From sequence record PX092659.1: a DNA stretch of 64,000 bases; one strand, given 5' to 3'. Both the position numbers and the translations under genes were made by a program. The notes beneath the pieces were generated by a model that was not told where the DNA came from, did no database searches, and was given only the letters and a program-made list of their open reading frames with translations. This document shows positions 4,952-59,528 of the stretch, piece by piece. How positions within the stretch are numbered: position 1 is the first letter of the stretch; each line of letters begins with the position of its first letter. Origin of the DNA: a phage.

Positions 4952-6328
4952 ATGACTATTGATATTAATAAGCTGAAAGAAGAACTTGGTCTGGGTGATC
5001 TGGCTAAATCTCTGGAAGGTCTGACCGCTGCTCAGAAAGCTCAGGAAGCTGAACGTATGCGTAAAGAGCAGGAAGAAAAAGAACTGGCTCGTATGAATGA
5101 CCTGGTTTCTAAAGCAGTTGGCGAAGATCGTCAGAAACTGGAACAAGCTCTGGAACTAGTTAAGTCCCTGGATGAAAAATCTAAAAAGAGCGCAGAACTG
5201 TTCGCACAGACTGTAGAAAAACAGCAGGAAACTATTGTTGGTCTTCAGGATGAAATTAAATCTCTGCTGACAGCTCGTGAAGGTCGTTCCTTCGTTGGTG
5301 ATAGTGTTGCTAAAGCACTGTACGGTACTCAGGAAAACTTTGAAGATGAAGTTGAAAAACTGGTTCTGTTATCTTATGTAATGGAAAAGGGCGTATTCGA
5401 GACCGAACACGGTCAAAAACACCTGAAAGCAGTGAATCAGTCTTCTTCTGTAGAAGTTTCTAGTGAAAGCTATGAAACTATTTTCTCTCAGCGTATTATC
5501 CGTGACCTGCAGAAAGAGCTTGTAGTTGGCGCACTGTTCGAAGAACTGCCGATGTCCAGTAAGATTCTTACTATGCTGGTTGAACCGGATGCTGGTAAAG
5601 CTACTTGGGTTGCTGCTTCTACTTATGGTACTGATGCAACTACTGGTGATGAAGTTAAAGGTGCTCTTAAAGAAATCCACTTCAGTACTTACAAACTGGC
5701 TGCTAAGTCCTTCATTACTGATGAAACTGAAGAAGATGCAATCTTCTCCCTGCTGCCACTGCTTCGTAAGCGTCTGATCGAAGCACACGCTGTTTCTATT
5801 GAAGAAGCCTTCATGACTGGTGATGGTTCCGGTAAACCGAAAGGTCTGCTGACTCTTGCTAGTGAAGATAGTGCTAAAGTTATTACTGAAGCTAAAGCTG
5901 ATGGTTCCGTACTGGTAACTGCTAAAACTATCTCTAAATTGCGTCGTAAACTGGGCCGTCATGGTCTGAAACTGAGCAAACTGGTACTGATTGTATCTAT
6001 GGATGCTTACTATGATCTGCTGGAAGATGAAGAATGGCAGGATGTTGCCCAAGTTGGTAATGATGCTGTTAAACTGCAGGGTCAGGTTGGTCGTATTTAT
6101 GGTCTGCCGGTTGTAGTTTCTGAGTACTTCCCAGCTAAAGCTACTTCCGCAGAGTTCGCAGTTATTGTTTATAAAGATAACTTCGTAATGCCACGTCAGC
6201 GTGCTGTTACTGTTGAACGTGAGCGTCAAGCTGGTAAACAGCGTGATGCTTACTATGTTACTCAGCGTGTTAACCTGCAACGTTACTTTGCAAATGGCGT
6301 TGTATCTGGTGCTTACGCTGCATCTTAA
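4952..6328 (+). CDS. major capsid protein precursor
   Basis: 458 aa; N-terminal coiled-coil delta/scaffold-like domain (KLKEELGLGDLAKSLEGLTAAQKAQEAERMRKEQEEKELARMNDL) followed by HK97-fold body; strongly E. coli-optimal codon usage; followed by intrinsic terminator. Confidence 0.9.
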   Translation: MTIDINKLKEELGLGDLAKSLEGLTAAQKAQEAERMRKEQEEKELARMNDLVSKAVGEDRQKLEQALELVKSLDEKSKKSAELFAQTVEKQQETIVGLQDEIKSLLTAREGRSFVGDSVAKALYGTQENFEDEVEKLVLLSYVMEKGVFETEHGQKHLKAVNQSSSVEVSSESYETIFSQRIIRDLQKELVVGALFEELPMSSKILTMLVEPDAGKATWVAASTYGTDATTGDEVKGALKEIHFSTYKLAAKSFITDETEEDAIFSLLPLLRKRLIEAHAVSIEEAFMTGDGSGKPKGLLTLASEDSAKVITEAKADGSVLVTAKTISKLRRKLGRHGLKLSKLVLIVSMDAYYDLLEDEEWQDVAQVGNDAVKLQGQVGRIYGLPVVVSEYFPAKATSAEFAVIVYKDNFVMPRQRAVTVERERQAGKQRDAYYVTQRVNLQRYFANGVVSGAYAAS

Positions 6329-6349
6329 TACAGGCTTTTCAGCCGATAA

Positions 6350-6374
6350 GGAGAGCTTCGGCTCTCCTTTTTTA
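6350..6374 (+). terminator. intrinsic terminator after major capsid gene
   Basis: GGAGAGC-TTCG-GCTCTCC hairpin (UUCG tetraloop) followed by TTTTTTA. Confidence 0.8.
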
Positions 6375-6387
6375 TTGGGAAAAATAA

Positions 6388-6900
6388 ATGCAAATAATCA
6401 CAGCTGAAGACTATAGATTATATGGTGGGTTAAAACGACCTGAACTAGAATCTGGAGTAGAGATGATGATTACTGCTGCCAATGCGCTGATTACTAGCCT
6501 TTTAGGTATGGATGATGCTGATGCGGTAGACCAGTTAATCAATACAAAACCTACTCGTAAAAAATACTTCTTAAGTTCTCCCTCGGCTACTTCAGTAACC
6601 AAAATGACTATTAACGACAAGGAGATAGATCCCGAACAGTATAAGTTGTACTCTGATGGGGTTATACTTCTTAAATTTAATCCTCCGGAAGGTTATATGG
6701 ATGTAGAATACACACAAGGTGGATTTAATCCAATACCTGAGGATCTCAAACTTGCAGCATGTATGCTAGTAGATCATTGGCATAAACAGGATTACCGTCA
6801 AGCTAAAACAATTGGCGGAGAAACAGTTACTTTTAATAATACTAAGTCTGGTATTCCAGAGCATATTCGTACTATTATTGAAGTTTACAGGAGAGTATAA
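6388..6900 (+). CDS. head completion / head-tail adaptor protein (p144-like)
   Basis: 170 aa immediately after capsid gene, synteny with T5 neck module. Confidence 0.5.
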   Translation: MQIITAEDYRLYGGLKRPELESGVEMMITAANALITSLLGMDDADAVDQLINTKPTRKKYFLSSPSATSVTKMTINDKEIDPEQYKLYSDGVILLKFNPPEGYMDVEYTQGGFNPIPEDLKLAACMLVDHWHKQDYRQAKTIGGETVTFNNTKSGIPEHIRTIIEVYRRV

Positions 6901-11346: not shown

Positions 11347-11378
11347 GGCTCTGGGTGATTTGCCCAGAGCTTTTTTAT
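11347..11378 (+). terminator. intrinsic terminator
   Basis: GCTCTGGG...CCCAGAGC hairpin followed by TTTTTTATT; directly followed by conserved GGGAAAAATAAA element and TMP start. Confidence 0.7.
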
Positions 11379-11393
11379 TGGGAAAAATAAAAT

Positions 11394-14300
11394 ATGACTG
11401 ATAAGCTAATACGAGAATTATTAATAGACGTTAAACAGAAGGGGGCGACTCGTACTGCAAAGTCTATTGAAAACGTAGCTGATGCATTAGAGAACGCTGC
11501 TGCTGCTTCTGAACTAACAAATGAACAGTTAGGTAAAATGCCCAGAACTCTATACTCCATTGAGAGGGCAGCAGATAGAGCAGCAAAAAGTCTTACTAAA
11601 ATGCAAGCTAGTAGGGGTATGGCTGGTATCACTAAATCCATTGATGGTATTGGTGATAAGCTAGATTACCTGGCTATCCAACTTATTGAAGTAACAGATA
11701 AACTAGAAATTGGATTCGATGGAGTTTCTAGATCTGTTAAAACAATGGGCAATGATGTTGCAGCTGCAACAGAGAAAGTTCAAGATAGGTTATACGACAC
11801 TAATAGGGCTTTAGGAGGTACGGCTAAAGGCTTTAATGATACTACTGGTGCTGCTGGTAGAGCTTCTAGAGCTATTGGTAATACTTCTGGTTCGGCACGT
11901 GGGGCTACCCGTGATTTTGCAGCAATGGCTAAGATCGGTGGTAGTTTACCTATTATGTATGCAGCTCTTGCTTCCAACATCTTCGTTTTGCAATCTGCAT
12001 TCGAACAACTTAAACTAGGTGATCAGCTAAATCGTCTAGAAAAATTTGGTGTTATAGTGGGTACTCAGACAGGTACTCCTGTTCAGTCCCTTGCTAGATC
12101 CCTACAAGAAGCAGCCGGGTACGCTATTTCCTTTGAAGAAGCTATGAGACAAGCATCCTCTGCTTCTGCATACGGTTTTGATGCTGAACAACTTAATAAA
12201 TTTGGTCTAGTAGCTCGTCGTGCTGCTGCTGTTCTTGGCGTTGATATGACTGATGCACTTAACCGTGTAATTAAGGGTGTATCTAAACAGGAAATAGAAC
12301 TTCTGGATGAACTTGGTGTTACTATTCGTCTTAATGATGCTTATGCTGATTACGTTAAGCAGTTAAATGCTGCAAACACAGGTATAACATATAATATTAA
12401 CAGCCTTACTACTTTCCAGAAACAGCAGGCGTATGCTAATGCTGTTATAGCAGAGTCTACTAAACGTTTTGGCTACTTAGATGAAGTTTTACGCGCTACT
12501 CCATGGGAGCAGTTTGCCGCTAATGCTGATGCCGCACTGAGAAAGATTCAGCAGGCTGCTGCTAAGTACTTAGGGCCAGTAATTGATGCTATCAACACAG
12601 TATTTTATACTTCTCAGGCTTCTGTATCTGCGGAGGCAGCTAGAGCTCAAGAAAAAACCAATAGACAGATAGACCCTACCAACGTTGGTGCTGTTGCTTT
12701 AAGTTTAACTGCTTCTGAAGAAGGCTATAATAAAGCTCTAGATATGTATAAGGAATCTCTTGATAAGCGTAATAAGCTAAAATCTGAGTTCGATAAACGA
12801 ATGGAACAAGCAGATTTCTATACAAAACTAGCTATACGTCAAGTTGGTGAAGGTATTCCTGTTGGTCTTGCAGCAGCAGGTGCTTCGGAGGCCAATAAGC
12901 AATTTGTAGCAGAAACTGCAGCTATGGGTCTACAAGTAACTAGACTTGGTAAGGAAGTAGAGGATTCTACTGAAAACCTTAATGCCTGGAAATCAGCGTA
13001 TCAAGCTGCTGGAGCTGCTGCTGCAAAAGCTAACCCCGAGTTTCAGAAGCAAATTAATCTACAGAGAGATACTACTGATCCTGATGCTGTATACGATTTT
13101 AACTCTACTGTATTAAAAGGACTAACCGAGCAGCAGAAAGCGTACAATCAGACTAAGAAAACTGCTAGTGACTTAGCTAATGATATACAGAACGTTGCTC
13201 AGAATACAGATACTGCTGCTAAAACTAGTGCTACTTTAGCAGATGCTATAAAAAACATAGAATCTCTATCTCTAGGTACGGGTAAAAGTGCAGATGAGTA
13301 TGTTAAAAATCTTAATTTAGGCTATAATACGTTATCTGAGATGAAAACTGCTTCTCAGGCCTTGTCCGAGTATGTTAAACTAACTGGTAATGAAACTAAA
13401 AATCAGTTAGCAGTTCAACAGAAAATAGCCGATGTGTATAATCAAACTAAGGATAAGGAAAAGGCTCAGGAAGCTGGTAGACGTTTAGAGTTGCAACAGT
13501 TAGAAGAGCAAGAAGCTGCTTTACGCCGTGTTCTTCAAACAAACCAGGGAAATAAAGCTGTTGAAAAAGAAATTGAAAAAATTCAGCTGGAGAAGCTTAA
13601 ACTTACTAATCAGGGTATGGAAGCCCAGAAGAAGGTTAAAGATTACACAGATAAAATTCTTGGTGTAGATCGTGAGATAGCTCTTCTGAATGACCGCACT
13701 ATGACTACTACTCAATATAGATTAGCTCAGCTAAAACTAGAACTAACTATAGAGAAAGAGAAGTACGAATGGTATACAAAACAAGCGGACAAACAGAAAG
13801 AGGCAGAACAGTCTAGACGTGCTCAAGCACAAATAAGTAGAGAAATATGGGAAGCGGAGAAACAGGCAACTGCCTCACATGTATCAGCTCTCATGGATGC
13901 GCTAGAGGTCAGTCAAACGCAGAGGAATGTTACTGGTCAATCTCAAATTCTTACTGAAAGATTATCCATTCTGCAGCAACAGCTGGAGCTGTCTAAGGGC
14001 AATACTGAGGAAGAAATTAAATATCGTAATGAGATTTATAAAACTTCGGCGGCCTTAGAGCAGCTTAGAAAACAGAGAGATACCCAGATGCAGCAACAGG
14101 TGGGATCTTCTGTAGGTGCTGTATATACTCCTACAACTGGACTATCTGGGGAGGATAAAGATTTTGCTGATATGCAAAATAGAATGGCCTCCTATGATCA
14201 GGCAATCTCTAAACTATCTGAGCTAAACTCTGAAGCAACCGCTGTAGCTCAAAGCATGGGTAACCTAACTAATGCTATGATTCAATTCTCTCAGGGATCT

Positions 14301-15074
14301 TTAGATACTACATCTATGATTGCTTCCGGTATGCAGACCGTAGCCTCTATGATTCAATATAGTACTAGTCAACAGGTTAGTGCAATTGATCAGGCTATTG
14401 CAGCAGAACAGAAACGTGATGGTAAATCAGAAGCATCTAAAGCTAAGTTGAAGAAGTTGGAAGCTGAAAAGTTGAAGATTCAACAAGACGCAGCTAAGAA
14501 GCAGATCATCATCCAAACTGCAGTAGCTGTAATGCAGGCGGCGACAGCTGTACCGTACCCATTCTCTATTCCTTTGATGGTGGCAGCAGGTTTGGCAGGT
14601 GCCTTAGCTCTTGCTCAAGCATCTTCTGCATCTGGTATGTCTTCTATTGCAGATTCTGGAGCTGATACCACTAGTTATTTAACTCTTGGAGAGCGTCAGA
14701 AGAACATTGATGTATCTATGTCTGCTAATGCTGGAGAACTATCTTATGTACGTGGTGATCAAGGTATTGGTAATGCTAATTCATTTGTGCCGCGTGCCGA
14801 AGGTGGTAATATGTACCCAGGGGTTAGCTATCAGATGGGAGAACATGGTACAGAAGTAGTTACACCTATGATTCCTATGAAAGCTACACCTAATGATGAG
14901 TTAAAAAATTCCTCTAATTCAACTTCAGGAAGACCTATCATCCTGAATATTAGTGCTATGGATGCTGCTAGTTTTAGAGAGTTCGCCTCTAGTAATAGCG
15001 GTGCTCTGAGGGATGCAGTAGAATTAGCTCTGAATGAAAATGGTGCTAGCCTAAAAACACTAGGAAATTCTTAA
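11394..15074 (+). CDS. tape measure protein (pb2-like)
   Basis: 1226 aa, long alpha-helical/coiled-coil protein, Ala/Gln/Lys rich; hydrophobic segment AVAVMQAATAVPYPFSIPLMVAAGLAGALALAQA near C-terminus; canonical position. Confidence 0.9.
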   Translation: MTDKLIRELLIDVKQKGATRTAKSIENVADALENAAAASELTNEQLGKMPRTLYSIERAADRAAKSLTKMQASRGMAGITKSIDGIGDKLDYLAIQLIEVTDKLEIGFDGVSRSVKTMGNDVAAATEKVQDRLYDTNRALGGTAKGFNDTTGAAGRASRAIGNTSGSARGATRDFAAMAKIGGSLPIMYAALASNIFVLQSAFEQLKLGDQLNRLEKFGVIVGTQTGTPVQSLARSLQEAAGYAISFEEAMRQASSASAYGFDAEQLNKFGLVARRAAAVLGVDMTDALNRVIKGVSKQEIELLDELGVTIRLNDAYADYVKQLNAANTGITYNINSLTTFQKQQAYANAVIAESTKRFGYLDEVLRATPWEQFAANADAALRKIQQAAAKYLGPVIDAINTVFYTSQASVSAEAARAQEKTNRQIDPTNVGAVALSLTASEEGYNKALDMYKESLDKRNKLKSEFDKRMEQADFYTKLAIRQVGEGIPVGLAAAGASEANKQFVAETAAMGLQVTRLGKEVEDSTENLNAWKSAYQAAGAAAAKANPEFQKQINLQRDTTDPDAVYDFNSTVLKGLTEQQKAYNQTKKTASDLANDIQNVAQNTDTAAKTSATLADAIKNIESLSLGTGKSADEYVKNLNLGYNTLSEMKTASQALSEYVKLTGNETKNQLAVQQKIADVYNQTKDKEKAQEAGRRLELQQLEEQEAALRRVLQTNQGNKAVEKEIEKIQLEKLKLTNQGMEAQKKVKDYTDKILGVDREIALLNDRTMTTTQYRLAQLKLELTIEKEKYEWYTKQADKQKEAEQSRRAQAQISREIWEAEKQATASHVSALMDALEVSQTQRNVTGQSQILTERLSILQQQLELSKGNTEEEIKYRNEIYKTSAALEQLRKQRDTQMQQQVGSSVGAVYTPTTGLSGEDKDFADMQNRMASYDQAISKLSELNSEATAVAQSMGNLTNAMIQFSQGSLDTTSMIASGMQTVASMIQYSTSQQVSAIDQAIAAEQKRDGKSEASKAKLKKLEAEKLKIQQDAAKKQIIIQTAVAVMQAATAVPYPFSIPLMVAAGLAGALALAQASSASGMSSIADSGADTTSYLTLGERQKNIDVSMSANAGELSYVRGDQGIGNANSFVPRAEGGNMYPGVSYQMGEHGTEVVTPMIPMKATPNDELKNSSNSTSGRPIILNISAMDAASFREFASSNSGALRDAVELALNENGASLKTLGNS

Positions 15075-15081
15075 AACTGGA

Positions 15082-15109
15082 GGAGGACTTTGAGTCCTCC
15101 TTTTCTTTA
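15082..15109 (+). terminator. intrinsic terminator after tape measure gene
   Basis: GGAGGACTTTGAGTCCTCC hairpin followed by TTTTCTTTA. Confidence 0.75.
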
Positions 15110-15127
15110 TGGAAAAATAAAAATTTC

Positions 15128-15156
15128 TTGATAAAATTTTCTAATACTATTATAAT
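15128..15156 (+). promoter_or_regulatory. sigma70-type promoter upstream of pb9-like gene
   Basis: TTGATA (15128-15133), 17-bp spacer, TATAAT (15151-15156); SD AAGAGGAG and ATG at 15184. Confidence 0.6.
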
Positions 15157-21130: not shown

Positions 21131-23481
21131 TGGCAATAACTACTAAGATTATTGTACAACAAATATTAAATATTGATGATACTAAAGCTACTGCTAGTAA
21201 ATTTCCTAGATACACAGTAACTCTTGGAAATTCTATTAGCTCTATTACTGCTAATGAGTTAGTATCTTCTATAGAGGCTGCTGCTAAATCTGCTGCGGCT
21301 GCAAAAGATTCTGAAATAGCTGCTAAAACCTCAGAACTTAATGCTAAAAACTCTGAACAGGAAGCTGCTATTTCTGCTGGAGCTTCTGAAGCTTCTGCTA
21401 CTCAGTCTGCTACCTCTGCTACTCAGTCTGCCACTTCTGCTACTAAATCTGCAGAATCAGCTGCAGCTGCAAAAACCTCTGAAACTAATGCTAAGTCTAG
21501 TGAAACAAAAGCTAAAACTAGCGAAACTAATGCAAAAGCTAGTGAAACAAAAGCTAAAACTAGCGAAACTAATGCAAAAGCTAGTGAGGATAAGGCAAAG
21601 GCTAGCGAAACTAATGCTGCTGCATCGGCGGCTGATGCAAAAATTAGTGAAGATAAAGCAAAAACCAGTGAGACTAATGCAGCTCAATCAGCGGCTGATT
21701 CTAGCGGTTTTAGGAATGAGGCGGAAATATTTTCTGGGCAAGCTGCTGCATCGGCATCTGCGGCAAAAATCTCTGAAACCAATGCAAAAACCTCGGAAAC
21801 AAAAGCTAAGGCTAGTGAAACTAATGCTGCGGGATCTGCAACTTCTGCCAGCCAATCTGTAGCTGCTATTCAAGTACTTAAATCAGATGTCGAACAGTTA
21901 AAATCTGATACCCAAGCCATTAAAAATAGTGCTGTAACAGAGACAACAGCTTTAAAAGCGGATGTAGAACAGTTAAAATCTGATACCCAGGCCATTAAAA
22001 ATAGTGCTGTAACAGAGACAACAGCTTTAAAAAACCAAGCTGCAACTTCTGCAACTAATGCTGCTAATTCTGCAGCAGAAGCGGGGGGACAGGCTACTGC
22101 TGCTGCTAATAGTGCTAATACTGCTAAAACTGAAGCCGATCGTTCAAAAACTGAGGCTGATAGATCAGAAGCTGCTGCTAATTCTACCCCCGACATTCAA
22201 CCTCTTCCAGATGTATGGATACCGTTTAACGATTCTCTAGATATGATCACCGGCTTTGCACCAGGCTATAAAAAAATAACAGTCGGTGATGAGGAAATAA
22301 CACTGCCTAGTGACAAAATTGTCTCGTTTTCCCGCGCGAGTTCCGCGACCTATATCAATAAGTCCGGCGCTCTTACCATTGCAGAAATTAATGAGCCACG
22401 TTTTGAAAAAGAAGGGCTGTTAATTGAAGGGCAGAGAACTAACTATCTAAAAAATTCTAATACACCGGAATTGTGGTACTACCACAGTTTACTGGCGAAA
22501 GAGTATGGGGTTGATAATTACGGTTTTAATTATGCAACCGTCACCGTGACAGACAGCCTTGTAGGCACAACCAGTAGTTATCAGATTCATAGTGTAACTG
22601 GAGAGAACAGGTTTTCTCTGTCCATCGGTGAAACCTGCACTTTTTCTGCCCGCTTTCGTGGAGTTAATTCACGTTGTCGCGTCCATATATCTCTTGTTAT
22701 TGGCGAAAATGTTAAAACATCTGTTGATGTATGTCTGGAGCCAGATACAGGTGAGGTTAAGGCGTACGGTAATAAGGCGCTGGTGACATTCAGAACGGAA
22801 AAACAGGGGGACTGGTGTTACTTTGAAACAACATATACCGCCGCAGAGAATATTGACGAAGTGGTATGCGGTTTTTTTATAACCAATCCTGAAGATGGTG
22901 GTTTTTCTTCTGATTCGTCATTAACAATGACTACGCCACAAATTGAAAAGGGGTCATGTGCTTCATCATTTATAATCACAGGAGAAACGCCAGCAACTCG
23001 CGCTAGTGACATGGTTTTTATACCAACCGATTGCAATGAACCATCATCTATACCGTTAAGTCTACTTGTTGAGGTAAATAGAAATTGGGATATAGCCCCA
23101 AACTCAGCTCCAAGGATAGTACATGTAGCAAATTTACCAGAAGACCAGTTATTAGTTGCTTTCAGGGTTCCATCAAGCGATACAGTAGAGCCGCTGCCTT
23201 ATTCTCAGTTGGGGGTCAGTCAGTCATTTACGCCAGTATCAACAAAAACAAGCGGGAAAATGGTGACGGGTTTTGTTTGCAACAAAAGCTCAGAATTAAG
23301 ATGCGTAACAAACGCTGTGTTCGGTGCGCCTGTGAAAACAACATGGAAAGCTGGTTTATCTAAAAATCTTCGTATCGGCGGCATAAGTGCAGATGGTGGT
23401 AAACATCTTTTCGGGCATGTCAGAAATTTTAGAATCTGGCATAAAGAATTAACGGATCGTCAAATGAGGGAGTCTGTGTGA
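21130..23481 (+). CDS. ltfA: L-shaped tail fibre protein A (LtfA-like), C-terminal lectin-like receptor-binding domain
   Basis: 783 aa; N-terminal Ala/Ser/Thr/Lys-rich repeat shaft (SETNAKA-type repeats), C-terminal domain with composition shift and ...GHVRNFRIWHKELTDRQM ending resembling LamG/concanavalin-like domains. Confidence 0.68.
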   Translation: MAITTKIIVQQILNIDDTKATASKFPRYTVTLGNSISSITANELVSSIEAAAKSAAAAKDSEIAAKTSELNAKNSEQEAAISAGASEASATQSATSATQSATSATKSAESAAAAKTSETNAKSSETKAKTSETNAKASETKAKTSETNAKASEDKAKASETNAAASAADAKISEDKAKTSETNAAQSAADSSGFRNEAEIFSGQAAASASAAKISETNAKTSETKAKASETNAAGSATSASQSVAAIQVLKSDVEQLKSDTQAIKNSAVTETTALKADVEQLKSDTQAIKNSAVTETTALKNQAATSATNAANSAAEAGGQATAAANSANTAKTEADRSKTEADRSEAAANSTPDIQPLPDVWIPFNDSLDMITGFAPGYKKITVGDEEITLPSDKIVSFSRASSATYINKSGALTIAEINEPRFEKEGLLIEGQRTNYLKNSNTPELWYYHSLLAKEYGVDNYGFNYATVTVTDSLVGTTSSYQIHSVTGENRFSLSIGETCTFSARFRGVNSRCRVHISLVIGENVKTSVDVCLEPDTGEVKAYGNKALVTFRTEKQGDWCYFETTYTAAENIDEVVCGFFITNPEDGGFSSDSSLTMTTPQIEKGSCASSFIITGETPATRASDMVFIPTDCNEPSSIPLSLLVEVNRNWDIAPNSAPRIVHVANLPEDQLLVAFRVPSSDTVEPLPYSQLGVSQSFTPVSTKTSGKMVTGFVCNKSSELRCVTNAVFGAPVKTTWKAGLSKNLRIGGISADGGKHLFGHVRNFRIWHKELTDRQMRESV
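21499..21582 (+). repeat. exact 42-bp tandem duplication inside fibre repeat array
   Basis: agtgaaacaaaagctaaaactagcgaaactaatgcaaaagct occurs twice in tandem (21499-21540, 21541-21582), in frame (SETKAKTSETNAKA); part of degenerate repeat array approx 21280-21870. Confidence 0.85.
21886..22035 (+). repeat. 75-bp tandem direct repeat (2 copies) in ltfA
   Basis: 21886-21960 and 21961-22035 differ at 2-3 positions; encode 25-aa repeat DVEQLKSDTQAIKNSAVTETTALKA. Confidence 0.85.
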
Positions 23482-25496: not shown

Positions 25497-25503
25497 AAGA
25501 AAA

Positions 25504-25545
25504 CCCCAGAGGGCTATCCCTCTGGGGTTTATTATTATTATTTAT
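25504..25545. terminator. bidirectional intrinsic terminator between convergent late and early modules
   Basis: CCCCAGAGGGCTATCCCTCTGGGG hairpin flanked by A-run upstream and TTTATTATTATT downstream; lies between stop of ltfB (+) and stop of dut (-). Confidence 0.8.
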
Positions 25546-27361: not shown

Positions 27362-29200
27362 TTATTCTAAGTAGGAAAATCCTTCTGCATCTTTTTTGAC
27401 AGTAATCTTATGGGCTAGTGGATGCGTATGCCCATGAGAAACAATGATAGAGTTTAGACTTTCTTCCTCATTTAATAGTTCAACAAGGGTGTCAAGTCCT
27501 TTAGTATCAATAAAGCTAATTACTTCATCAAGGAATAGAAGATTAATATTAACTTTACTAATAGATGTTAACAGCATCCGAATAGCTAACAGGGTTGCTA
27601 GATTAATTCGACTTTGCTGACCAGTAGAGCAGTTCTCCATACTGGTACGGTTTCCATCATTGAAGATTACTACTTGTAATTTTGTTTCATCAAGCTCAAA
27701 TCCAAGTGCGAACTTACCACCAGTCATAATGGAAAGGTATTTATTGATAAGCTCTTCAAATACTTTCACACTATGTTCTAGTTTATACCCTACCAGATTT
27801 TTCAATGCGGCGATCAGAATATCGAGGTCAGCAACAGCTTCTGATACTTCATTTAGTTTGGAAGTAATCTCAGACATTTCTGCCTCAGCTTTCTCAATCT
27901 GTTCTAGTTTCGCTTTATATTTTGCATTGGCTAATTCAACATTTGCATTATGCTCTTTGGCAATTGCAACCTTAGAGCGGCCATCAGCGATTTCCTGTTC
28001 TAATTGTCGGATTTGCACCTGTAGGATTTGCACATTGAGTTCTTCAAAAGAAGCATCACTCATTGAATTTTTGAACTCGTCTCTAGCTACCACTGCTTTA
28101 TCCAAAGCATCCTTTGCTCTAGTATACGCAACGTACTCAAGTTGTTCTTTCTTCAACTGTTCTAGCTTAGCTTCTAGAGATTGCTTCTCTTTGAACAGAG
28201 GATCATATTCTACTCTAGCCATATCCATTGCTTTTTGAGCAGCAGTTGTATCCAGATGAGTACCACAAGTAGGACATTCAGTATTTGAAGCCTCTTGCTT
28301 GAACTTCTGATAACGTTTCTTAACTTCTCCTGCACGTGAGGTTACAATCGTTAGGTCACGCGTAACACTCGAGATCTCTTCATTTTGGTCAGTGGGCGCA
28401 GGCAAATTTTTGAAAGGCTCGAAAGATTGTTCGGCAACTTGTACAGCTTTGTCCAAATTACGCAATTTAGTAATATTAGCCTCTTGAGACTTGGCTAATG
28501 CCGCCTTAATTTTCGATTCAGTAAGTTCTTGTGCTAATGGCTCTTCATCAAACTCCGGTACTTCTACAGGTTCCTGCAAAGTACCTAGATTATTTTTCCC
28601 ATTAAGGATTTTCGTAATTACAGCCATCTGGCCCTGCAAATTATTTAAGGTATTTGCTATTTCTTTACGATCAGCCTTAATAGTTTCTGACATTTCTTTG
28701 TACTGTTCTTGATTGAACAAGTTGACAAGAAAAGCCTTACGTGTTGCATCTGTTGCTTTTAGAAAGTCTAGATTGGAACCCACTGATTGATAAATTAGTT
28801 TGGTGAATGTTTGGAAGTCACCACCCATAATCTCTTCAATCATCTTGTATGTTTGGGTTGCCGTGTGTCCACTAATATCTTCTCCATTCTTAATAAGAGT
28901 TACTTTAGCAGTTGATTTAACTACTTTGTGTAGTTCATACTCATCTTCATCTTTTGAGAAGTAAGCGTGCATATCATACTCTTTCTTCGGAGAAGACCAG
29001 GAGAACAGAGCATCCTTCTTAATACCGCGTGAGTTCTTATTATAAAAGAGTTCTTCAATAATAGTAGCAATGGTGGATTTCCCTAGCCCATTGCCACCAA
29101 TTAGTTGAGTAACTGGATTCTTATCGAAATGAATTACGATGTCCTTACCGTAAGACATAACGTTACTAAATTTTAGTGTCTTAATTGTAATCTTTGACAT
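27362..29200 (-). CDS. sbcC: SbcC/Rad50-like ATPase (D13-like)
   Basis: 612 aa; Walker A GGNGLGKST at N-terminus, long central coiled coil, C-terminal signature and Walker B (LLFLDEVISFID). Confidence 0.8.
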   Translation of the reverse strand: MSKITIKTLKFSNVMSYGKDIVIHFDKNPVTQLIGGNGLGKSTIATIIEELFYNKNSRGIKKDALFSWSSPKKEYDMHAYFSKDEDEYELHKVVKSTAKVTLIKNGEDISGHTATQTYKMIEEIMGGDFQTFTKLIYQSVGSNLDFLKATDATRKAFLVNLFNQEQYKEMSETIKADRKEIANTLNNLQGQMAVITKILNGKNNLGTLQEPVEVPEFDEEPLAQELTESKIKAALAKSQEANITKLRNLDKAVQVAEQSFEPFKNLPAPTDQNEEISSVTRDLTIVTSRAGEVKKRYQKFKQEASNTECPTCGTHLDTTAAQKAMDMARVEYDPLFKEKQSLEAKLEQLKKEQLEYVAYTRAKDALDKAVVARDEFKNSMSDASFEELNVQILQVQIRQLEQEIADGRSKVAIAKEHNANVELANAKYKAKLEQIEKAEAEMSEITSKLNEVSEAVADLDILIAALKNLVGYKLEHSVKVFEELINKYLSIMTGGKFALGFELDETKLQVVIFNDGNRTSMENCSTGQQSRINLATLLAIRMLLTSISKVNINLLFLDEVISFIDTKGLDTLVELLNEEESLNSIIVSHGHTHPLAHKITVKKDAEGFSYLE

Positions 29201-30620: not shown

Positions 30621-30648
30621 AGATATAAGAAAAGGGGCCGAAGCCCCG
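30621..30648 (-). terminator. intrinsic terminator after D11-like gene
   Basis: minus-strand GGGGC-UUCG-GCCCC hairpin followed by UUUUCUUAU. Confidence 0.7.
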
Positions 30649-37816: not shown

Positions 37817-39279
37817 ATATCGCTGGCCTGTTCACCTGTTGAATTTTCAGCTTTGTCTTTCTTAGCACGTTTAGGTTGAGCCGGCTTATCCTTCTCAATA
37901 GGGATAACGAACTCAGCTTCCATTTGAGATATATCTTCCATTGCTAGGTTGGTAGTGTTATCCATTCGCAGAGTTTCCCAGTTCATTTTAGGCATAAACT
38001 TCACGCTATCAGAAGAACGAGTCTTAACGAAGTCAAACATAATAGCACCTTGACCATTATCAGCTTTTGCAGCATTAAGATTAGCAGCCATGTCTGCGGA
38101 ATCAAGAATCCCCTTTGACATACGTGTTCTACCATCCTGATCGATCTGGTAAGGAGCTACACCAGCCACGTTATGTTTCTGGCAGATAGATTTGAAAGAC
38201 GAGCTAACAACCATCTGTTCTTTCCAGTCATACATATCAATGGTTTTAGAATCTGGAAGTCGGGTTTGGTTAATATAGTCCAGTAAAGCTACTGTAACTT
38301 TATCACCATATCTAGCAACTAATTTATTTAACTCTACATCAACTGTTGTAATGGACAGTTCAGGGTCATAAACGATAATCATAGGAGTATGTAGTTCATA
38401 CCCCTCTATTAGTTTACTCTCCATATCGTAGAAATCACTCATCTTAGCCATTGTGTACTGTTTAACAAAGTTATCGAAAAGCTCTTCACCACCATTAAAC
38501 ATTCTAGCTCTAGTTCTGGCTAATCTCAACAGAGCTGCACCTTCTAGAGTATTATTACGCATTGCTAGTGCTGATACACCAGCTAACATGGCTAGATTAC
38601 GTCTAAATACTTCATGTTCTTTCATCTCAATTGAGAAGTATGGAGCAATATCTCCATTCAAATATTGCTGAACCTGTATGTTTGAACAGATAATGGATTT
38701 ACCAGTACCACGCCAACCACCAAGCAGTAACGTTTCTGTGCGAGCTAAACCAATTTGAGCGTCGAACTCATTACAAATACCAAGAGCGATTAAGTTCAGT
38801 TTGGTATCTTCTTCTCTCTGGAAAATACGCATGTTATCTGCGTTGAATACTTTTCCAGTATTCGTTACTTTCTCTTCTAATTTTAAGTGAAGGGAGGCAA
38901 CTCGGTTGAGAATTTCTCCCTGATCCAGCATTGTTAAATCTTGAAGCACGTCTGTTTCTAGAAGCTTCAGGAATAAATCCTGTGTATATTCGGCCTCTAG
39001 GACTTCAAGTGCCTGTTCCATGCTCACTTCTGGAATTTGAGTGTTAGCTAAGACGACTAGAGCTTGAGAAAGGCGGGCGTTCCTATTAGCTTCAAGCATA
39101 AGTGCGTCAATGGACGGCATTGTGTTATATTTTTTATAATAATTCTGGACGGCTTGGTAAATTGAGGAGAAAGCGTCATTAAAATGATCTTTATGCAGTT
39201 TTGAGAATGTTTCCAATGCTATTTGCTTCTGTTCGGAAGCTAGAAGCATCTTCAACACTACAGCTTGCACGTTAAACAT
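37813..39279 (-). CDS. replicative DNA helicase, DnaB-like RecA-fold ATPase
   Basis: 488 aa; Walker A LLLGGWRGTGKS, Walker B-like IIVYDPELS; N-terminal helical domain; adjacent to primase. Confidence 0.65.
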   Translation of the reverse strand: MFNVQAVVLKMLLASEQKQIALETFSKLHKDHFNDAFSSIYQAVQNYYKKYNTMPSIDALMLEANRNARLSQALVVLANTQIPEVSMEQALEVLEAEYTQDLFLKLLETDVLQDLTMLDQGEILNRVASLHLKLEEKVTNTGKVFNADNMRIFQREEDTKLNLIALGICNEFDAQIGLARTETLLLGGWRGTGKSIICSNIQVQQYLNGDIAPYFSIEMKEHEVFRRNLAMLAGVSALAMRNNTLEGAALLRLARTRARMFNGGEELFDNFVKQYTMAKMSDFYDMESKLIEGYELHTPMIIVYDPELSITTVDVELNKLVARYGDKVTVALLDYINQTRLPDSKTIDMYDWKEQMVVSSSFKSICQKHNVAGVAPYQIDQDGRTRMSKGILDSADMAANLNAAKADNGQGAIMFDFVKTRSSDSVKFMPKMNWETLRMDNTTNLAMEDISQMEAEFVIPIEKDKPAQPKRAKKDKAENSTGEQASDI

Positions 39280-39853
39280 TATCTAGCAGCTCCTCTGTAA
39301 AGTTATCCGCTATATTCTGCGGTTTAACCCTCTCTATATCTAGAGCATCTAGAGCTGCGAAATCTCCATACAGGGCTAAAAGCAGCTTATCTCTATACCA
39401 CAGAGCTTCTCCTAGAGTTTTTAGGGTTTTTCTAAATACTTTGGAGTTTTTAGATATGGTTACTTTAAATGTGTTATTTTTTGTTACTTCTATATTACGA
39501 ATGCCTAGCTTGTTACCTATAAAGCTATTAGCGGAATTTTGAGAGGAAGTAACTTCACGTAAGTTATTCCAAGTATTATCAGTTTTAATTCTATTTTTAT
39601 GATCTACCTTGTCAGGAATTTCTCCTTCCATGTATAGAAAGGCCCACCTATGCGCTCCCATAGATTTTTGTATACCTGACTCTAAGGTTATCTTTATATA
39701 AATGTAGCCCGATGAATGCATATAGCCTGCAGGTTTGTTAGCGTGCTTAGCATTGAACGCAGGATTATTTTCTCTAGGTAGCCAGTAAAAATTTCCAGTA
39801 TCAGGCTCATATCTTAATAATGTTTTAAGATACTGCTGGGTAATCTCCCCCAT
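39272..39853 (-). CDS. HNH homing endonuclease with AP2-like domain
   Basis: 193 aa; HNH core AHRWAFLYMEGEIPDKVDHKNRIKTDN; C-terminal AP2-like segment. Confidence 0.75.
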   Translation of the reverse strand: MGEITQQYLKTLLRYEPDTGNFYWLPRENNPAFNAKHANKPAGYMHSSGYIYIKITLESGIQKSMGAHRWAFLYMEGEIPDKVDHKNRIKTDNTWNNLREVTSSQNSANSFIGNKLGIRNIEVTKNNTFKVTISKNSKVFRKTLKTLGEALWYRDKLLLALYGDFAALDALDIERVKPQNIADNFTEELLDNV

Positions 39854-39861
39854 TATGTAGC

Positions 39862-39897
39862 CTTCTAATATACAAGAAAGGAGAACCGAAGTTCTCC
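39862..39897 (-). terminator. intrinsic terminator after D5-like gene
   Basis: minus-strand GGAGAAC-UUCG-GUUCUCC hairpin followed by UUUCUUGUAU. Confidence 0.7.
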
Positions 39898-39912
39898 TTA
39901 TCTGCCTTCTAA

Positions 39913-40680
39913 TTATTCAGCAGCCGCAGCTTTTGCATCCAGTTTAGCACGCTTAGCGGCACCATCATAGTCCTTAGCAACCAGACCACGACGGGACAGC
40001 ATAGATTTAACACCACGCTCAGACTTACCAGTTTTCTCAGCGATCTCAGCAACAGTCATGTTAACCAGATCCAGACCTTCTAACAGATCTTCACGAGTTT
40101 TAGCACTTGAAGTTTCCTGTACCGGCATAGCCGCAATACGACCTTCACGGAGCAGGCTCAGAGCTTTACCACGGATCTGCTTAATATTGCGACCGAAGTG
40201 AGCAGCGATAGCTTCAATAGTAGCACCAGCAACAACCTGATTAACAAAGTCAGTTTCTTCATCCGGAGTGAAGGAACGAACAGCAGCAGCTTTTTCAGTT
40301 GGTTTAACAGAAGCGGTCATTTCCAGACTCAGGATCTTACCCTGTACCTGTTTAGCACCAAACTGACCACCAGCTACAGCAGCAGCGATTTCAGCATAAG
40401 TATACTGACCAGCATGAGCGTTCAGGAAATCAACCAGTTCAGCTTCCTGCTCAGGAGTCCACGGGGATTTCTGTACTTCGTTAGCTTTCTGTACTTCGAA
40501 ACCTTCTTTACGCAGCTTAGAGCCAACAGAGCGAGCGGTAACGTCTTTGCCAGTTTCAGCAGCCAGTTCAGCAGCGATAGCCGCTACTTGTTCTTGAGAG
40601 ATTACAGCAACACCCAGAGCAGTGGCTTTTGCTTTCAGAGACTCGGTTACACCTTCTACGTTCCAGTTCAGTTTAGACAT
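39913..40680 (-). CDS. abundant early DNA-binding protein with three internal repeats (D5-like)
   Basis: 255 aa, Ala-rich, E. coli-optimal codons; three repeated helix-turn-helix-like modules (TYAEIAAAVAGGQFGAKQVQGKILSL / TIEAIAAHFGRNIKQIRGKALSL / TVAEIAEKTGKSERGVKSMLSR). Confidence 0.5.
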   Translation of the reverse strand: MSKLNWNVEGVTESLKAKATALGVAVISQEQVAAIAAELAAETGKDVTARSVGSKLRKEGFEVQKANEVQKSPWTPEQEAELVDFLNAHAGQYTYAEIAAAVAGGQFGAKQVQGKILSLEMTASVKPTEKAAAVRSFTPDEETDFVNQVVAGATIEAIAAHFGRNIKQIRGKALSLLREGRIAAMPVQETSSAKTREDLLEGLDLVNMTVAEIAEKTGKSERGVKSMLSRRGLVAKDYDGAAKRAKLDAKAAAAE

Positions 40681-42692: not shown

Positions 42693-43004
42693 TTATTCTT
42701 TTTCCGCCAGGCGTTTAGCTTCTTTTTCTACTTCTAATAAAACCTCACTATTAGATAATATTTTAGTAAATGCCTTAAATAAATGAGATGTTGTTTCTAG
42801 AGTGTATGGCATACTGAATCCACTTTTTGTTGGAAACCATTCACCTTCTATATCTTGGAGCCAGTACCTAATTCCTAAGTATAGATTCCCCCTAAACTCA
42901 GATACAGTTAGCCTAACCTGTTGGCCATCTTCTCTTTCCCAGATAACTATGGACTGATCATCTACATGTCCAACATAATCCTGATTTACATTATCTCCCG
43001 ACAT
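42693..43004 (-). CDS. putative PC4-like ssDNA-binding protein
   Basis: 103 aa; RLTVSEFRGNLYLGIRYW...WFPTKSGFS pattern resembles PC4/YdbC-like fold; assignment by motif only. Confidence 0.4.
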   Translation of the reverse strand: MSGDNVNQDYVGHVDDQSIVIWEREDGQQVRLTVSEFRGNLYLGIRYWLQDIEGEWFPTKSGFSMPYTLETTSHLFKAFTKILSNSEVLLEVEKEAKRLAEKE

Positions 43005-43651
43005 TTTATTGCTCCCTGACTTAGGAGATATTCCTCTGCCTCCTCTGGTTGAATATTAAAAAACTCAGTAGAACCATCAAATATTGATTCTGTAAATATC
43101 TGTGTAGTACTAAAAAATCTATGAGCTTTATTTTCTAGATTATACGCTGACTCATCATAAGAGTATACTCCATATATACTCAAGTCCTCCAGATTAGAAT
43201 CTTTTTTGATCTCTAAAAGTCTTCTATCTGGACTTTTAGATGTTCCTATTTTTGTGCCTAGTTGTGGGCTATAAAATACGTATAAATAGCTAGTAGATTT
43301 ACACATAGGGCATGATCTACCAGCATTTTTAACTTTATCTACACTACTAGTCCACGTGTGTCCGTGGGTGCACTCAAATATTGCCGGACTTTGGGAATTT
43401 ATATAGGAGGATATAAGTTTTATACCTTTAGTACTTAACTGTTGATTTATGACCTCTACAGTTAGTTTAGCTTTGCCACTACAATAAGGGCAGCCACTAC
43501 CTTTCCGTATATTACTTAAATATCCCTTCCATTGATGACCTTTTGAACACTCAAATATAGCGGGTGTTCTTATATTAGCCCATTCACTCACTATATGAAA
43601 ACCTAGTGGCTCTAACTCTTTATTTATTTGCTCTTCTGTTAATTTTTTCAC
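42986..43651 (-). CDS. zinc-ribbon plus T5orf172/GIY-YIG-like putative homing endonuclease
   Basis: 221 aa; two repeats ending in CPYC/CPMC; C-terminal YLYVFYSPQLGTKIGTSKSPDRRL...GSTEFF; GTG start; paralog of 1489..2163 and 54845..55708. Confidence 0.6.
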   Translation of the reverse strand: MKKLTEEQINKELEPLGFHIVSEWANIRTPAIFECSKGHQWKGYLSNIRKGSGCPYCSGKAKLTVEVINQQLSTKGIKLISSYINSQSPAIFECTHGHTWTSSVDKVKNAGRSCPMCKSTSYLYVFYSPQLGTKIGTSKSPDRRLLEIKKDSNLEDLSIYGVYSYDESAYNLENKAHRFFSTTQIFTESIFDGSTEFFNIQPEEAEEYLLSQGAIKCREIM

Positions 43652-43671
43652 TATAATTTACATATGACAAA

Positions 43672-43700
43672 GGAGAGCCGAAGCTCTCCTTTTCTTTATT
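43672..43700 (+). terminator. intrinsic terminator-like hairpin oriented on + strand within minus-strand gene block
   Basis: GGAGAGC-CGAA-GCTCTCC followed by TTTTCTTTATTATTTTTT on + strand; exact reverse complement of the capsid-gene terminator stem. Confidence 0.5.
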
Positions 43701-43989
43701 ATTTTTTGCCTACTGGCGTAGCTCTATCAAGTTCACTAGACAATGAAGTGACACGTTTCACCTTATTTACAGGAATAAATCGGAAGCTATCATTAGTGCG
43801 ACTAAACACTAGAATTTCGTCATCTTTTGGTTGACGGATACGCTCCTGAGCAAAACGTTTACTTAGGTACTTATCAGTAAAATCCATAGTGCCCTGTAAA
43901 TAGGTAGTGCCCTTTTGACGGAGCTTTTCGTAATGAAGATAAAATTCATTATGAGCTTCACATGCGGAGATAATTTCTTGCTTAGTCAT
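43699..43989 (-). CDS. hypothetical protein
   Basis: 96-aa ORF with ATG start, between two early genes. Confidence 0.4.
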   Translation of the reverse strand: MTKQEIISACEAHNEFYLHYEKLRQKGTTYLQGTMDFTDKYLSKRFAQERIRQPKDDEILVFSRTNDSFRFIPVNKVKRVTSLSSELDRATPVGKK

Positions 43990-56980: not shown

Positions 56981-57122
56981 GCTAAAAAGCTAGACTGGTA
57001 ATATACAGGGCCTGGGTATGAAAATACTCGGGCCTTTTCTATCAGAAAATTTTATTTGCCTAATGACCAATAATAATGTAGAATATTCCTTAAATCCTGA
57101 TAACTATAAAAAGGAAAGCCAA

Positions 57123-59453
57123 ATGAGCCATCGCATTGAAAAAGTAATTAAACGTGACGGTACTGTAGAAGACTTTGCTCCTGAAAAACTCAATGGTTGG
57201 GCAGAGTATGGTTGCAAAACAGTTGATGTAAGTTGGTCAGCCATTACTATGGCTGCTCAAAAAACTCTACCTAAAGGGGTTGTAGATTCCGACACTCTGA
57301 TGGACGCATTAATTAAAGCTGCTGAAAGTCTTATCAAAGATAACCCAGCATACGATGTGCCAGCAAAGGAATTACGTCTTGCGCAAATGCGTAAGCGCCT
57401 TTATGACTCTTTCGAACCACCTTCTCTACGTTTCTTCCATGACCATATGGTTAGCGTAGGTGCATGGGAAGACATGAGTGCATGGATTACCGATGAGCAA
57501 TTTGAAGCTCTGAATCAGGTTATCGATCATGATCGTGACCGTCTTTTTACTAGTGGTGGACTGAAACAGTTCTTTGATAAGTATTCCCGTCGTAACATAG
57601 CCACTGGTGAAATTTATGAAACCCCGCAGTTTGCCTACATGGGTATGGCAATGGCGATGTTATCTCAACCTAACTGGACAATTCTAGATGCAATCGACCT
57701 CTACAACGCAATGTCGCTCCACAAAATCAACGTTCCTACGCCGCCACTGGTTGGTCTGCGCTCTAGTGACCGTGGATTTGCTAGTTGCTGCCTCGTGGAT
57801 TCCACTGACACGTTGGATTCAATCGACACCGCCGAGCACATCGTCTTCAAAATGGTCGCAGCCAGAGCGGGAATCGGGTATCATCTTGAAAGCCGATCAA
57901 TTGCTGATCCGGTGCGAAATGGGGCATTCCCGCATTCCGGAAAACTGCCATATTATAGACACATTGACCGCTCAGTAAAGGCCAATACTCAGCAAACTCG
58001 TGGGGGTTCTGCCACAGTGTCTTATCCATACTTCGACCCTGAAATCATTCAATTGATGCAGGTTAAGCAACAACGTGCTACAGATGAGAATAAAATCGAT
58101 AAGATGGATTATTCTCTGAGCTTCAACAATCTTTTGTTAAAACGTTATCTGAAAAATGAAGATATTACGCTAATGTCATACTTCTATGCTCCAGAAGTTC
58201 ATGAAGCGTTTTATAGTGATGACGAGGCTAAATTTGAAGAAATCTACGTGGCAGCGGAGAAACGTGTGGCATCTCTTACAAAGATCGACCACGAAGGAAA
58301 AACAGTTCCTGCAGCTCCTAAAGTCTCTGCAAAAGAAATCCTAGATACTTGGCTACGTATCCGAATGGAAACAGGACGTATGTATGCTCATCACATCGGG
58401 GAATCTAATCGTCACGGTAACTTCCTTGATCCGATCCGTATGACAAACCTTTGTGTTGAGATTACTCAGCCTACGCGCCCGTTCCATCATATCACAGAAC
58501 TGTATAAGACAAAAGAGCAGCTTGATCAAATGAAGCCGGAGGATATTGGTGAAGTATCTCTGTGTAACTTAGGTGGTGTTGTACTTGGGCGCATGGAATC
58601 TCTGGCTGAGTGGGAAAAAACTTGCTACATCCTTCTGAAATTCGTTGATACAATTATCGAAATTCAGGATTATCCGTTCCCAACTATGGAATATACGGCT
58701 AAGAAACGTCGTAATGTTGGTATTGGTCTAATGAACGCAGCAGGTGCAATGGCAGCAGAAGGTCTGGCTTATGAAGGTATTGAAGCCCGTAACTGGATTC
58801 ACCGTGAGGCTGAAAAACTGTCTTACTTCCTGCATAAAGCCTCTGTACGCCTAGCTAGAGAACAGGGCGCATGTGAGTGGTTTGATCGTACTAAACCATC
58901 TAAAGGAATTCTGGTAATCGACACGTACAAGAAAACTGTTGATGAACTGGTATCCGTAGGTCTAGAAATGGATTGGGAGTCTCTGCGTGCAGATATTCTG
59001 AAATACGGTATGCGTAACTCTGTTCTGACTGCTCAGATGCCGGGGGAAAGTTCCTCTGTTCTGTTAGGTGTTACTAACTCTATCGAACCGCCTCGTAAGA
59101 TTGTATCTATCAAGGGTAGTGCAGTAAATAAAGTAATTGCAATTGCTCCAGGTGCAACCGATTGGGAAACGTTAATGAGCTATAAATTGGCTTATGATGT
59201 AGATCGTATCGAGTGGATCAAATGGGTAGCAACTATGCAGAAATTCTTCAGTCAGTCTATCAGTACGAATATGTACTATGACTACACTAAGTTTGAGAAT
59301 GAAATCATTCCTGGCCCAGTAGTAGTTCGTGATTTCATGACTGCTGTTAAGTATGGGTGGAAAACTTGGTATTATGCTAACTTCAATACCGCAAATGGTG
59401 GAGGTGCTGGAGAAGAAGCAGCCGGTTGTGCATCAGGTGGTTGTACTATTTAA
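57123..59453 (+). CDS. nrdA: ribonucleoside-diphosphate reductase large subunit
   Basis: 776 aa from ATG 57123 (SD AAAAAGGAAAG); N-terminal ATP-cone (HRIEKVIKRDGTVEDF), catalytic Cys regions, C-terminal Cys pair CASGGCTI. Confidence 0.9.
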   Translation: MSHRIEKVIKRDGTVEDFAPEKLNGWAEYGCKTVDVSWSAITMAAQKTLPKGVVDSDTLMDALIKAAESLIKDNPAYDVPAKELRLAQMRKRLYDSFEPPSLRFFHDHMVSVGAWEDMSAWITDEQFEALNQVIDHDRDRLFTSGGLKQFFDKYSRRNIATGEIYETPQFAYMGMAMAMLSQPNWTILDAIDLYNAMSLHKINVPTPPLVGLRSSDRGFASCCLVDSTDTLDSIDTAEHIVFKMVAARAGIGYHLESRSIADPVRNGAFPHSGKLPYYRHIDRSVKANTQQTRGGSATVSYPYFDPEIIQLMQVKQQRATDENKIDKMDYSLSFNNLLLKRYLKNEDITLMSYFYAPEVHEAFYSDDEAKFEEIYVAAEKRVASLTKIDHEGKTVPAAPKVSAKEILDTWLRIRMETGRMYAHHIGESNRHGNFLDPIRMTNLCVEITQPTRPFHHITELYKTKEQLDQMKPEDIGEVSLCNLGGVVLGRMESLAEWEKTCYILLKFVDTIIEIQDYPFPTMEYTAKKRRNVGIGLMNAAGAMAAEGLAYEGIEARNWIHREAEKLSYFLHKASVRLAREQGACEWFDRTKPSKGILVIDTYKKTVDELVSVGLEMDWESLRADILKYGMRNSVLTAQMPGESSSVLLGVTNSIEPPRKIVSIKGSAVNKVIAIAPGATDWETLMSYKLAYDVDRIEWIKWVATMQKFFSQSISTNMYYDYTKFENEIIPGPVVVRDFMTAVKYGWKTWYYANFNTANGGGAGEEAAGCASGGCTI

Positions 59454-59462
59454 TAAAAACAA

Positions 59463-59489
59463 GGAGATCTTCGGGTCTCCTTTTTCTTT
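59463..59489 (+). terminator. intrinsic terminator after nrdA
   Basis: GGAGATC-TTCG-GGTCTCC hairpin followed by TTTTTCTTT. Confidence 0.75.
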
Positions 59490-59499: not shown

Positions 59500-59528
59500 T
59501 TGCTAATCGCTACCAGATTTGCTATAAT
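59500..59528 (+). promoter_or_regulatory. T5-type promoter upstream of HNH gene and nrdB
   Basis: TTGCTA(59500-59505)-17 bp-TATAAT(59523-59528) with TG extended -10. Confidence 0.7.

Follow-up and report, generated by a model that had tools for sequence, protein, structure and literature searches.

Putative intrinsic terminators with GGAG...CUCC stems in a T5-like phage, two of them confined to rare alleles with endonuclease insertions

The DNA analysed here, a stretch of 64,000 nucleotides from sequence record PX092659.1 (hereafter the window), belongs to a T5-like phage (Tequintavirus); a 3-kb piece around position 6350, made up of the major head protein gene and the genes behind it, is 96-97% identical at the DNA level to T5-like phages such as T5_ev219 and phiLLS. 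The window runs in the opposite orientation to the T5 reference record used for comparison (NC_005859 / AY543070, with 17 annotated terminators), and the gene map and the T5 annotation together place late structural genes on the plus strand (1-25496), early replication genes on the minus strand (25558-55765) and early nucleotide-metabolism genes on the plus strand (55996 onward). Between the convergent late and early blocks lies a 13-bp perfect stem flanked by A-rich and T-rich runs (25501-25530), active on both strands by annotation: its T5 homologue (81641-81680) is recorded as an 'efficient bidirectional rho-independent transcription terminator', and this element is the genuine bidirectional terminator of the window. 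At 21278-21848, within the gene for the 783-aa L-shaped tail fibre, we also observed 21-nt (7-codon) tandem repeats in which Ala, Ser, Glu, Thr, Asn and Lys codons are abundant.

Five hairpins with GGAG...CUCC stem ends, each named here by the first position of its core, stand behind genes of all three blocks. The first, a putative terminator or attenuator (6348-6373, plus strand), follows the major head protein gene (4952-6328): its core, 6350-6367, reads GGAGAGCTTCGGCTCTCC and folds as AAGGAGAGC-UUCG-GCUCUCCUU, its stem begins 19 nt past the stop codon, six U follow at 6368-6373, and the next gene starts at 6388. A second, putative terminator (15079-15109, plus strand) follows the tape-measure gene pb2 (11394-15074) and has the form GGAGGAC-UUUGA-GUCCUCC at 15082-15100, 4 nt past the stop, with the tail UUUUCUUUA and U-rich tract UUUUCUUU; a sigma-70 promoter lies behind it at 15128-15156. 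On the minus strand, a putative terminator or attenuator at 39868-39899 follows D5 (39913-40680), with a core (39880-39897) that reads GGAGAACTTCGGTTCTCC on that strand and folds as AAGGAGAAC-UUCG-GUUCUCCUU 13 nt past the stop, the tail UUUCUUGUAU and the U-rich tract UUUCUUGU. Past it come a gene for an HNH homing endonuclease (39272-39853) and then the D6 helicase gene.

The fourth hairpin, again a putative terminator or attenuator (43660-43692, minus strand), follows a T5.114-like gene (43699-43989). Its core, 43672-43689, is GGAGAGCTTCGGCTCTCC on the minus strand and GGAGAGCCGAAGCTCTCC on the plus strand, forms AAAGGAGAGC-UUCG-GCUCUCCUUU and begins 6 nt past the stop codon; its sense tail, written as UUUGUCAUAUGU, UUUGUCAU, TTTGTCATATGT or TTTGTCATATG, is weak, with only three U before a G. 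The last, a putative terminator at 59461-59489 on the plus strand, follows nrdA (57018-59453): the core, 59463-59480, reads GGAGATCTTCGGGTCTCC and folds as AAGGAGAUC-UUCG-GGUCUCCUU with one G-U pair, 7 nt past the stop, with the tail UUUUUCUUU and a T5-type promoter behind it at 59500-59528. A separate candidate in this region, a hairpin that would hide the Shine-Dalgarno sequence before hegH (59529-59549), was rejected, as it folds no better than shuffled sequence (z = -0.9).

The preliminary description of this DNA had grouped the five sites into one family defined by a GGAG...CUCC stem and a UUCG or CGAA tetraloop. The stem ends are indeed present at all five sites and the UUCG loop at four, but the loop at 15082 is UUUGA. 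Exact GGAG-NNN-UUCG-NNN-CUCC occurs at 6350 (+), 39880 (-), 43672 (-) and 59463 (+), and the pattern GGAGNNNTTCGNNNCTCC has four matches in the window against none in each of 100 dinucleotide-preserving shuffles. All five sites fold better than shuffles when taken as 46-nt pieces (-12.5 to -19.3 kcal/mol; z from -2.6 to -6.1), and the hairpins alone have stems of 7-10 bp and energies of -11.9 to -15.5 kcal/mol. A U-rich sense tail follows directly at four of the five, with 5-6 U in the first 8 nt past the full stem, and every stem begins 4-19 nt past a stop codon, in sense to the flanking genes.

Altogether, six C(UUCG)G hairpins with real stems are found in the window (6356+, 59469+, 62605+, 43683-, 39891- and 30643-), and in all six the UUCG is in the sense direction of the neighbouring genes. 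The exceptional stability of cUUCGg, which phage T4 mRNA first revealed (Tuerk et al. 1988, recounted in PMC4371310), belongs to RNA; for this reason, and because the loop is always in sense, these hairpins would function in the sense transcript. They resemble the T4-mRNA hairpins (PMC4371310) in the C(UUCG)G loop with its closing C-G pair, in their intercistronic position in a virulent coliphage and in their mRNA sense; they differ in that the phage family is another one and the stems are non-homologous, and a role in T5 is deduced. One of the six lies outside the GGAG group: the putative terminator after D11 (30634-30647, minus strand), GGGGC-UUCG-GCCCC-UUUUCUU with a sense-oriented loop, has its T5 counterpart at 76783-76805, annotated as a terminator. 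Another stands behind the thymidylate synthase gene, in the stretch 62600-62662; after it comes a perfect 18-nt AT-rich inverted repeat whose loop carries the -35 element (TTGCTT) of a T5-type promoter, and the fold has -25.1 kcal/mol (z = -5.9).

Comparison with T5 supported the further claim that these are terminator-type hairpins with a common stem design. The 6350 hairpin is base for base the T5 element 101563-101586, a 'putative rho-independent transcription terminator' in the same gene context and on the same strand, and 15082 corresponds to the annotated terminator at T5 92087-92113, which has the same stem with the loop UUUAU and is followed by promoter P-G 25. The 59463 sequence is unchanged in T5 at about 50152, where it carries no annotation. 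T5 lacks the hairpin sequences of 39880 and 43672 at those positions: the place of 43672 is occupied by an annotated gene-strand terminator (T5 64929-64948) with the unrelated hairpin GCCCC-TATAT-GGGGC-TTTTTG (GCCCCTATATGGGGC), and after D5 the empty-site phages T5 and Th1 have a different terminator-like hairpin, GGGGAGGGGGCUAUGCUCCUUCCCC-U5. In all, three of about 18 T5 terminators have GGAG stems.

Among further relatives, the terminators behind the capsid gene, nrdA, the T5.114-like gene and D5 keep their position while their sequence changes. The capsid hairpin is invariant in about 27 close T5-like loci, and its place is taken by GGGCAGGGC-TTCTA-GCCTTGCCC-T6 in relatives whose capsid protein is 57% identical. 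After nrdA, the GGAGAUC hairpin is kept in most T5-like phages whatever gene follows, with or without the hegH endonuclease gene, and other lineages have GAAA-loop, other UUCG-loop or unrelated hairpins. The T5 hairpin stands after the T5.114-like gene in 25 of 28 related loci and a GGAGAGC hairpin in the other three. Terminators usually behave in this way, keeping their place while the hairpin is freely exchanged; in close relatives the stems are invariant and hence show no pair-by-pair covariation.

Several related arrangements were seen beside these. In three loci of the comparison set (L138, L146 and L159, at about 2875-2960, downstream of the capsid gene) a hairpin of the CCCCTC...GAGGGG type stands in place of the capsid terminator, with a perfect AT-rich palindrome (30-40 nt) behind it. 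In more distant T5-like phages (L219-L222, at about 2095-2160, after nrdA), the loop or stem of the hairpin holds the -35 element of the next promoter (TTTGCA/TTGCTA), a composite of the PeSL kind. In T5 itself (NC_005859 68078-68140; L004, about 28079-28141), a terminator-like hairpin, GGGGAGGGGGCTATGCTCCTTCCCC-TTTTTG, holds in its loop the start codon annotated for D6 (68109). About 55 nt downstream there is another start, preceded by a good ribosome-binding site (AAGGAGAATGACC), and D6 of the window begins at the equivalent ATGTTTAAC; the annotated T5 start is probably a misannotation.

Taken together, the five sites are very probably ordinary intrinsic (Rho-independent) terminators of a T5-like phage. 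As expected of such elements, they combine a stable stem-loop with a U-tract in sense (weak at 43672), a sense placement past the stop codon and a conserved position with changing sequence. Such a phage uses the host RNA polymerase; the sense transcript would form a short G/C-based stem, closed at four sites by the cUUCGg tetraloop, and the U-rich tract behind it would let the polymerase release the RNA. We found no RNA 3'-end mapping for this phage, T5 or T5-like phages in the searchable literature, and the T5 annotations are labelled 'putative'; we infer both actual termination and its efficiency at these sites from sequence.

The hairpins could instead be no terminators at all and act only as 3'-end or processing barriers that stabilise the upstream mRNA against exonucleases. 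The extreme stability of cUUCGg hairpins (PMC4371310) and the known stabilisation of mRNA by terminator hairpins (PMC10204088) are consistent with such a role, and the weak U-tract of 43672 would fit a mainly stabilising function at that site. However, canonical U-rich tails directly after the stem are found at four of the five sites, and T-runs follow the same hairpin in unrelated phages, which a pure stability element would not need; nor do termination and mRNA stabilisation exclude each other. We therefore consider a purely stabilising role very unlikely.

T5-type early promoters, with the highly conserved consensus AAAAATTnnAnTTGCTnnnnGCnnAAAnnnnTGnTATAATA...CATAAATTGA, lie in the window at 31819, 31920, 36400, 41488, 42663, 44478, 45504, 49649, 52966 and 55742 on the minus strand and at 55926, 59523, 62656, 63488 and 63839 on the plus strand, all of them in sense to their gene block; they were also seen as repeat families D3, D5, D6, D10 and D11. 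A scan with a weight matrix built from 43 annotated T5 promoters found no minus-strand T5-type promoter from 43672 to 42663 or from 39880 to 36400. The terminators at 6350, 39880 and 43672 should be leaky, because the needed genes between each of them and the next promoter lack a T5-type promoter, and from their sequence context these three would best be seen as attenuators. The genes that would depend on read-through are the head-completion, head-tail and tail genes behind 6350, the essential D6 helicase gene behind 39880 and that of a PC4-like regulator behind 43672, and attenuation could set expression ratios, with much capsid and little of what lies behind, or with low endonuclease. The sites at 15082 and 59463, each with a promoter behind it, are predicted terminator-then-promoter composites.

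Two observations concern the sequence behind the structural-gene terminators. An identical 22-nt tail, CTTTTTTATTGGGAAAAATAAA, stands at 6367-6388 and 11370-11391, behind the capsid and tail-assembly-chaperone terminators, with a 74% copy behind the pb2 terminator (15100-15134); it takes in the U-tract as well as the ribosome-binding region and start codon of the gene that follows, and relatives with 57% capsid identity retain TTTTTTATTGAGGAAAATATATG. Between the tail-assembly-chaperone terminator and pb2 (window 11347-11394, T5 95777-96587), T5 carries the endonuclease gene T5.141. The window lacks this gene and its pb2 starts 22 nt past the same terminator, so that T5.141 is another endonuclease gene inserted directly behind a terminator.

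The site at 43672 had been singled out in the preliminary description as the exact reverse complement of the capsid stem, oriented for plus-strand termination inside a block of minus-strand genes. Direct reading confirmed that the 18-mer on the plus strand is the exact reverse complement of 6350-6367; the two are therefore identical when 43672 is read on the minus strand. Minus-strand genes flank it on both sides (43699-43989 and 42986-43651), and, read on their strand, the hairpin has the RNA sequence of the one behind the capsid gene, UUCG loop included, which removes the grounds for calling it a flipped copy. Judged by sequence, the 43672 copy and the capsid copy should work in one and the same orientation with respect to their genes.

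It had further been suggested that 43672 stops antisense transcription or acts bidirectionally, that is, that it is a bidirectional or mainly antisense terminator against plus-strand transcription through the early minus-strand genes. The plus strand does have the better U-run: there, a 10-bp stem with a CGAA loop is followed by UUUUCUUUAUUAUUUUUU (43690-43707; tail TTTTCTTTATTATTTTTT), with a tail score of 4.0 against 2.2 in sense, and the plus-strand fold nearly matches the sense fold (-15.7 and -16.9 kcal/mol). Among the non-convergent sites with GGAG stems or UUCG loops, the antisense tail exceeds the sense tail only here and, marginally, at 62601 (4.06 against 3.88). In canonical bidirectional terminators, which lie between convergent genes, A- and U-tracts flank the hairpin (PMC10204088). 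Like two such elements, LUZ7 T50 and T5 81641-81680, 43672 combines a stem that is a near-perfect palindrome with an A-rich run on one side and some U after the hairpin on both strands, the A-rich run 5' of the stem on the sense strand giving the good antisense U-tract. Unlike them, it is not flanked by convergent genes or transcribed from both strands as far as predicted promoters indicate, and its sense U-tract is short.

Further evidence also argues against an antisense function. The T5-promoter matrix gave no plus-strand match between 25.5 and 55.9 kb, and generic sigma-70-like matches on the plus strand of the same region were not enriched over shuffled sequence; the idea of an antisense promoter that feeds 43672 was rejected on these grounds. 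The A-run consists in part of two lysine codons and the two stops behind them (AAA AAA TAA TAA), the sense strand is the one with the UUCG loop, and the position is homologous to a gene-strand terminator of T5. Relatives with the GGAGAGC hairpin have a better sense tail than the window (TTTGTTGTATAT / UUUGUUGUAU), and the real bidirectional terminator of the genome lies elsewhere, at 25501-25530. A bidirectional or mainly antisense role of 43672 is thus unlikely; incidental termination of stray antisense transcripts may be possible there, a reading to which the data lend no support.

The identity of the 6350 and 43672 stems had also been taken as reuse of one stem, a reading that proved uninformative, as many genomes have arrived at this sequence independently. 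At least 120 stretches of unrelated viral contigs, some of jumbo-phage size, contain AGGAG-NN-CUUCGG-NN-CUCCU; both NN positions pair in 119 of 122 viral copies, and the next 8 bases contain 5.4 T on average. Bacterial genomes of many phyla, among them Vibrio, Pseudomonas, Enterobacter, Clostridia and Bacteroidales, contain the capsid terminator's 24-mer, AAGGAGAGCTTCGGCTCTCCTTTT, without any change in at least 120 stretches, where uniform chance is calculated to give about 0.004 occurrences in 596 Gb.

Outside the hairpin, the sites of the window have little in common. An alignment of 81 nt around the five sites and the copy in phage fp01 revealed nothing shared beyond a core of about 23 nt, the hairpin and its U-run, and with the flanks unrelated outside this core a mobile or repeated element was rejected; a known RNA family was likewise rejected, a search of the whole window against Rfam at gathering thresholds having given no matches. 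One likeness, a 59-nt inverted repeat of 75% identity between 6345-6403 and the reverse of 43636-43694, is weak and consists mostly of the 23-nt core and an AT-rich leader ending in a start codon. Since the motif is widespread and the flanks are unrelated, the identity of 6350 and 43672 reflects a small, heavily used sequence space and not reuse, and the shared GGAG...CUCC/UUCG design is best read, from these comparisons, as convergent use of a generic and very common terminator and not as the copying of an element. Only 28 other cUUCGg hairpins were found in the fetched viral loci, with mostly purine-rich 5' arms (GGGG, GGGT, GGGA), a sample too small to speak to GGAG enrichment. As a counterpoint to convergence, the window has five GGAG sites against three of about 18 terminators in T5, and two of the five lie beside endonuclease insertions, a mild excess that convergence does not fully explain.

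These two, 39880 and 43672, are found next to genes that are absent from T5. The minus-strand HNH gene between D5 and D6 (39272-39853), whose insertion boundaries were taken from an alignment with T5 and Th1, encodes an HNH_3 homing endonuclease of 193 aa (Pfam PF13392, E = 5.5e-14). Downstream of the 43672 hairpin, likewise on the minus strand, lies a gene for a putative GIY-YIG-like endonuclease of 221 aa (42986-43651; T5orf172/MUG113 and a treble-clef zinc finger in Pfam), which is annotated as 'endonuclease' in phage fp01. Both hairpins are confined to rare insert-bearing alleles: the 39880 hairpin together with the HNH insert is present in 12 of 438 GenBank T5-like records, the 42986-43651 region in 14 of 227 matching records, and, among the 28 loci compared at 43672, all three with the GGAGAGC hairpin also carry the downstream endonuclease gene.

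Such a distribution raises the alternative that the two hairpins are part of homing-endonuclease cassettes, or were created with them, and are not independent inventions. It agrees with the presence of a different resident hairpin in empty-site phages at both loci, and with the gene upstream of 43672, whose amino-acid identity falls to 77% exactly in the insert-bearing allele. The 39880 hairpin of the window and fp01's version of 43672 are alike, tails included (AAGGAGA[A/G]CTTCGG[T/C]TCTCCTTT[C/G]TTGTATAT), and the 59-nt repeat between the 6345 and 43636 regions could be counted in its favour as well. Close relatives of both endonucleases in viral contigs are found only at the same loci, which fits either model. 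Against the cassette reading, the flanks of the hairpins cannot be aligned beyond the core, and distant HNH paralogues elsewhere have no such hairpin upstream. The nrdA hairpin before hegH is kept with or without hegH, T5.141 stands behind a resident terminator of a non-GGAG type, and three other endonuclease genes of the window have no upstream hairpin. The pairing of endonuclease and hairpin also rests on two events, which make no pattern, and the independent origin of the same hairpin sequences in many genomes weakens it further.

We accordingly regard a cassette origin of the two hairpins with some scepticism. Its variants, in which the hairpin is a portable upstream insulator that keeps the endonuclease low, a substitute for the resident terminator that abolishes the target site of the endonuclease itself, or a PeSL-like recombination point, hold little probability even when taken jointly. 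It is also quite unlikely that endonuclease insertions as such swap the resident terminator just upstream for a GGAG-NNC-UUCG-GNN-CUCC hairpin, as an expression-throttling insulator or a destroyed recognition site, which would make 39880 and 43672 mobility footprints and not independent terminators.

PeSLs of T4-type phages, repeated promoter/stem-loop composites of which there are about 50 per genome and whose shared sequence mediates recombination (PMC2839356, PMC4122927), offer a further comparison. As in PeSLs, a stem-loop is followed by a strong sigma-70 promoter at 15082 and 59463, and hairpins lie beside variable or inserted genes at 39880 and 43672. Unlike PeSLs, 6350, 39880 and 43672 have no adjacent promoter, only the hairpin of about 23 nt is common to the sites, the flanks are unrelated, T5 has three GGAG-stem hairpins, and no recombination product was seen; nothing like the numerous sequence-sharing copies at which PeSLs recombine was found here.

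The reading of these hairpins as terminators is right and is already recorded for T5, and they show no feature beyond those of known intrinsic terminators; the only mildly new point is that 39880 and 43672 are confined to rare alleles with homing-endonuclease insertions. That terminator hairpins are identical between loci or between organisms is no evidence of common descent or of a special mechanism. For T5-like phages, the gain is mainly one of annotation: a cleaner transcription map, in which the capsid gene, D5 and the T5.114-like gene are each followed by a putative attenuator, pb2 and nrdA each by a predicted terminator-promoter composite, and in which a putative terminator that had gone unannotated in T5 stands behind its nrdA. 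The sole thread that may be worth more work is that two rare endonuclease insertions coincide with replaced terminators.
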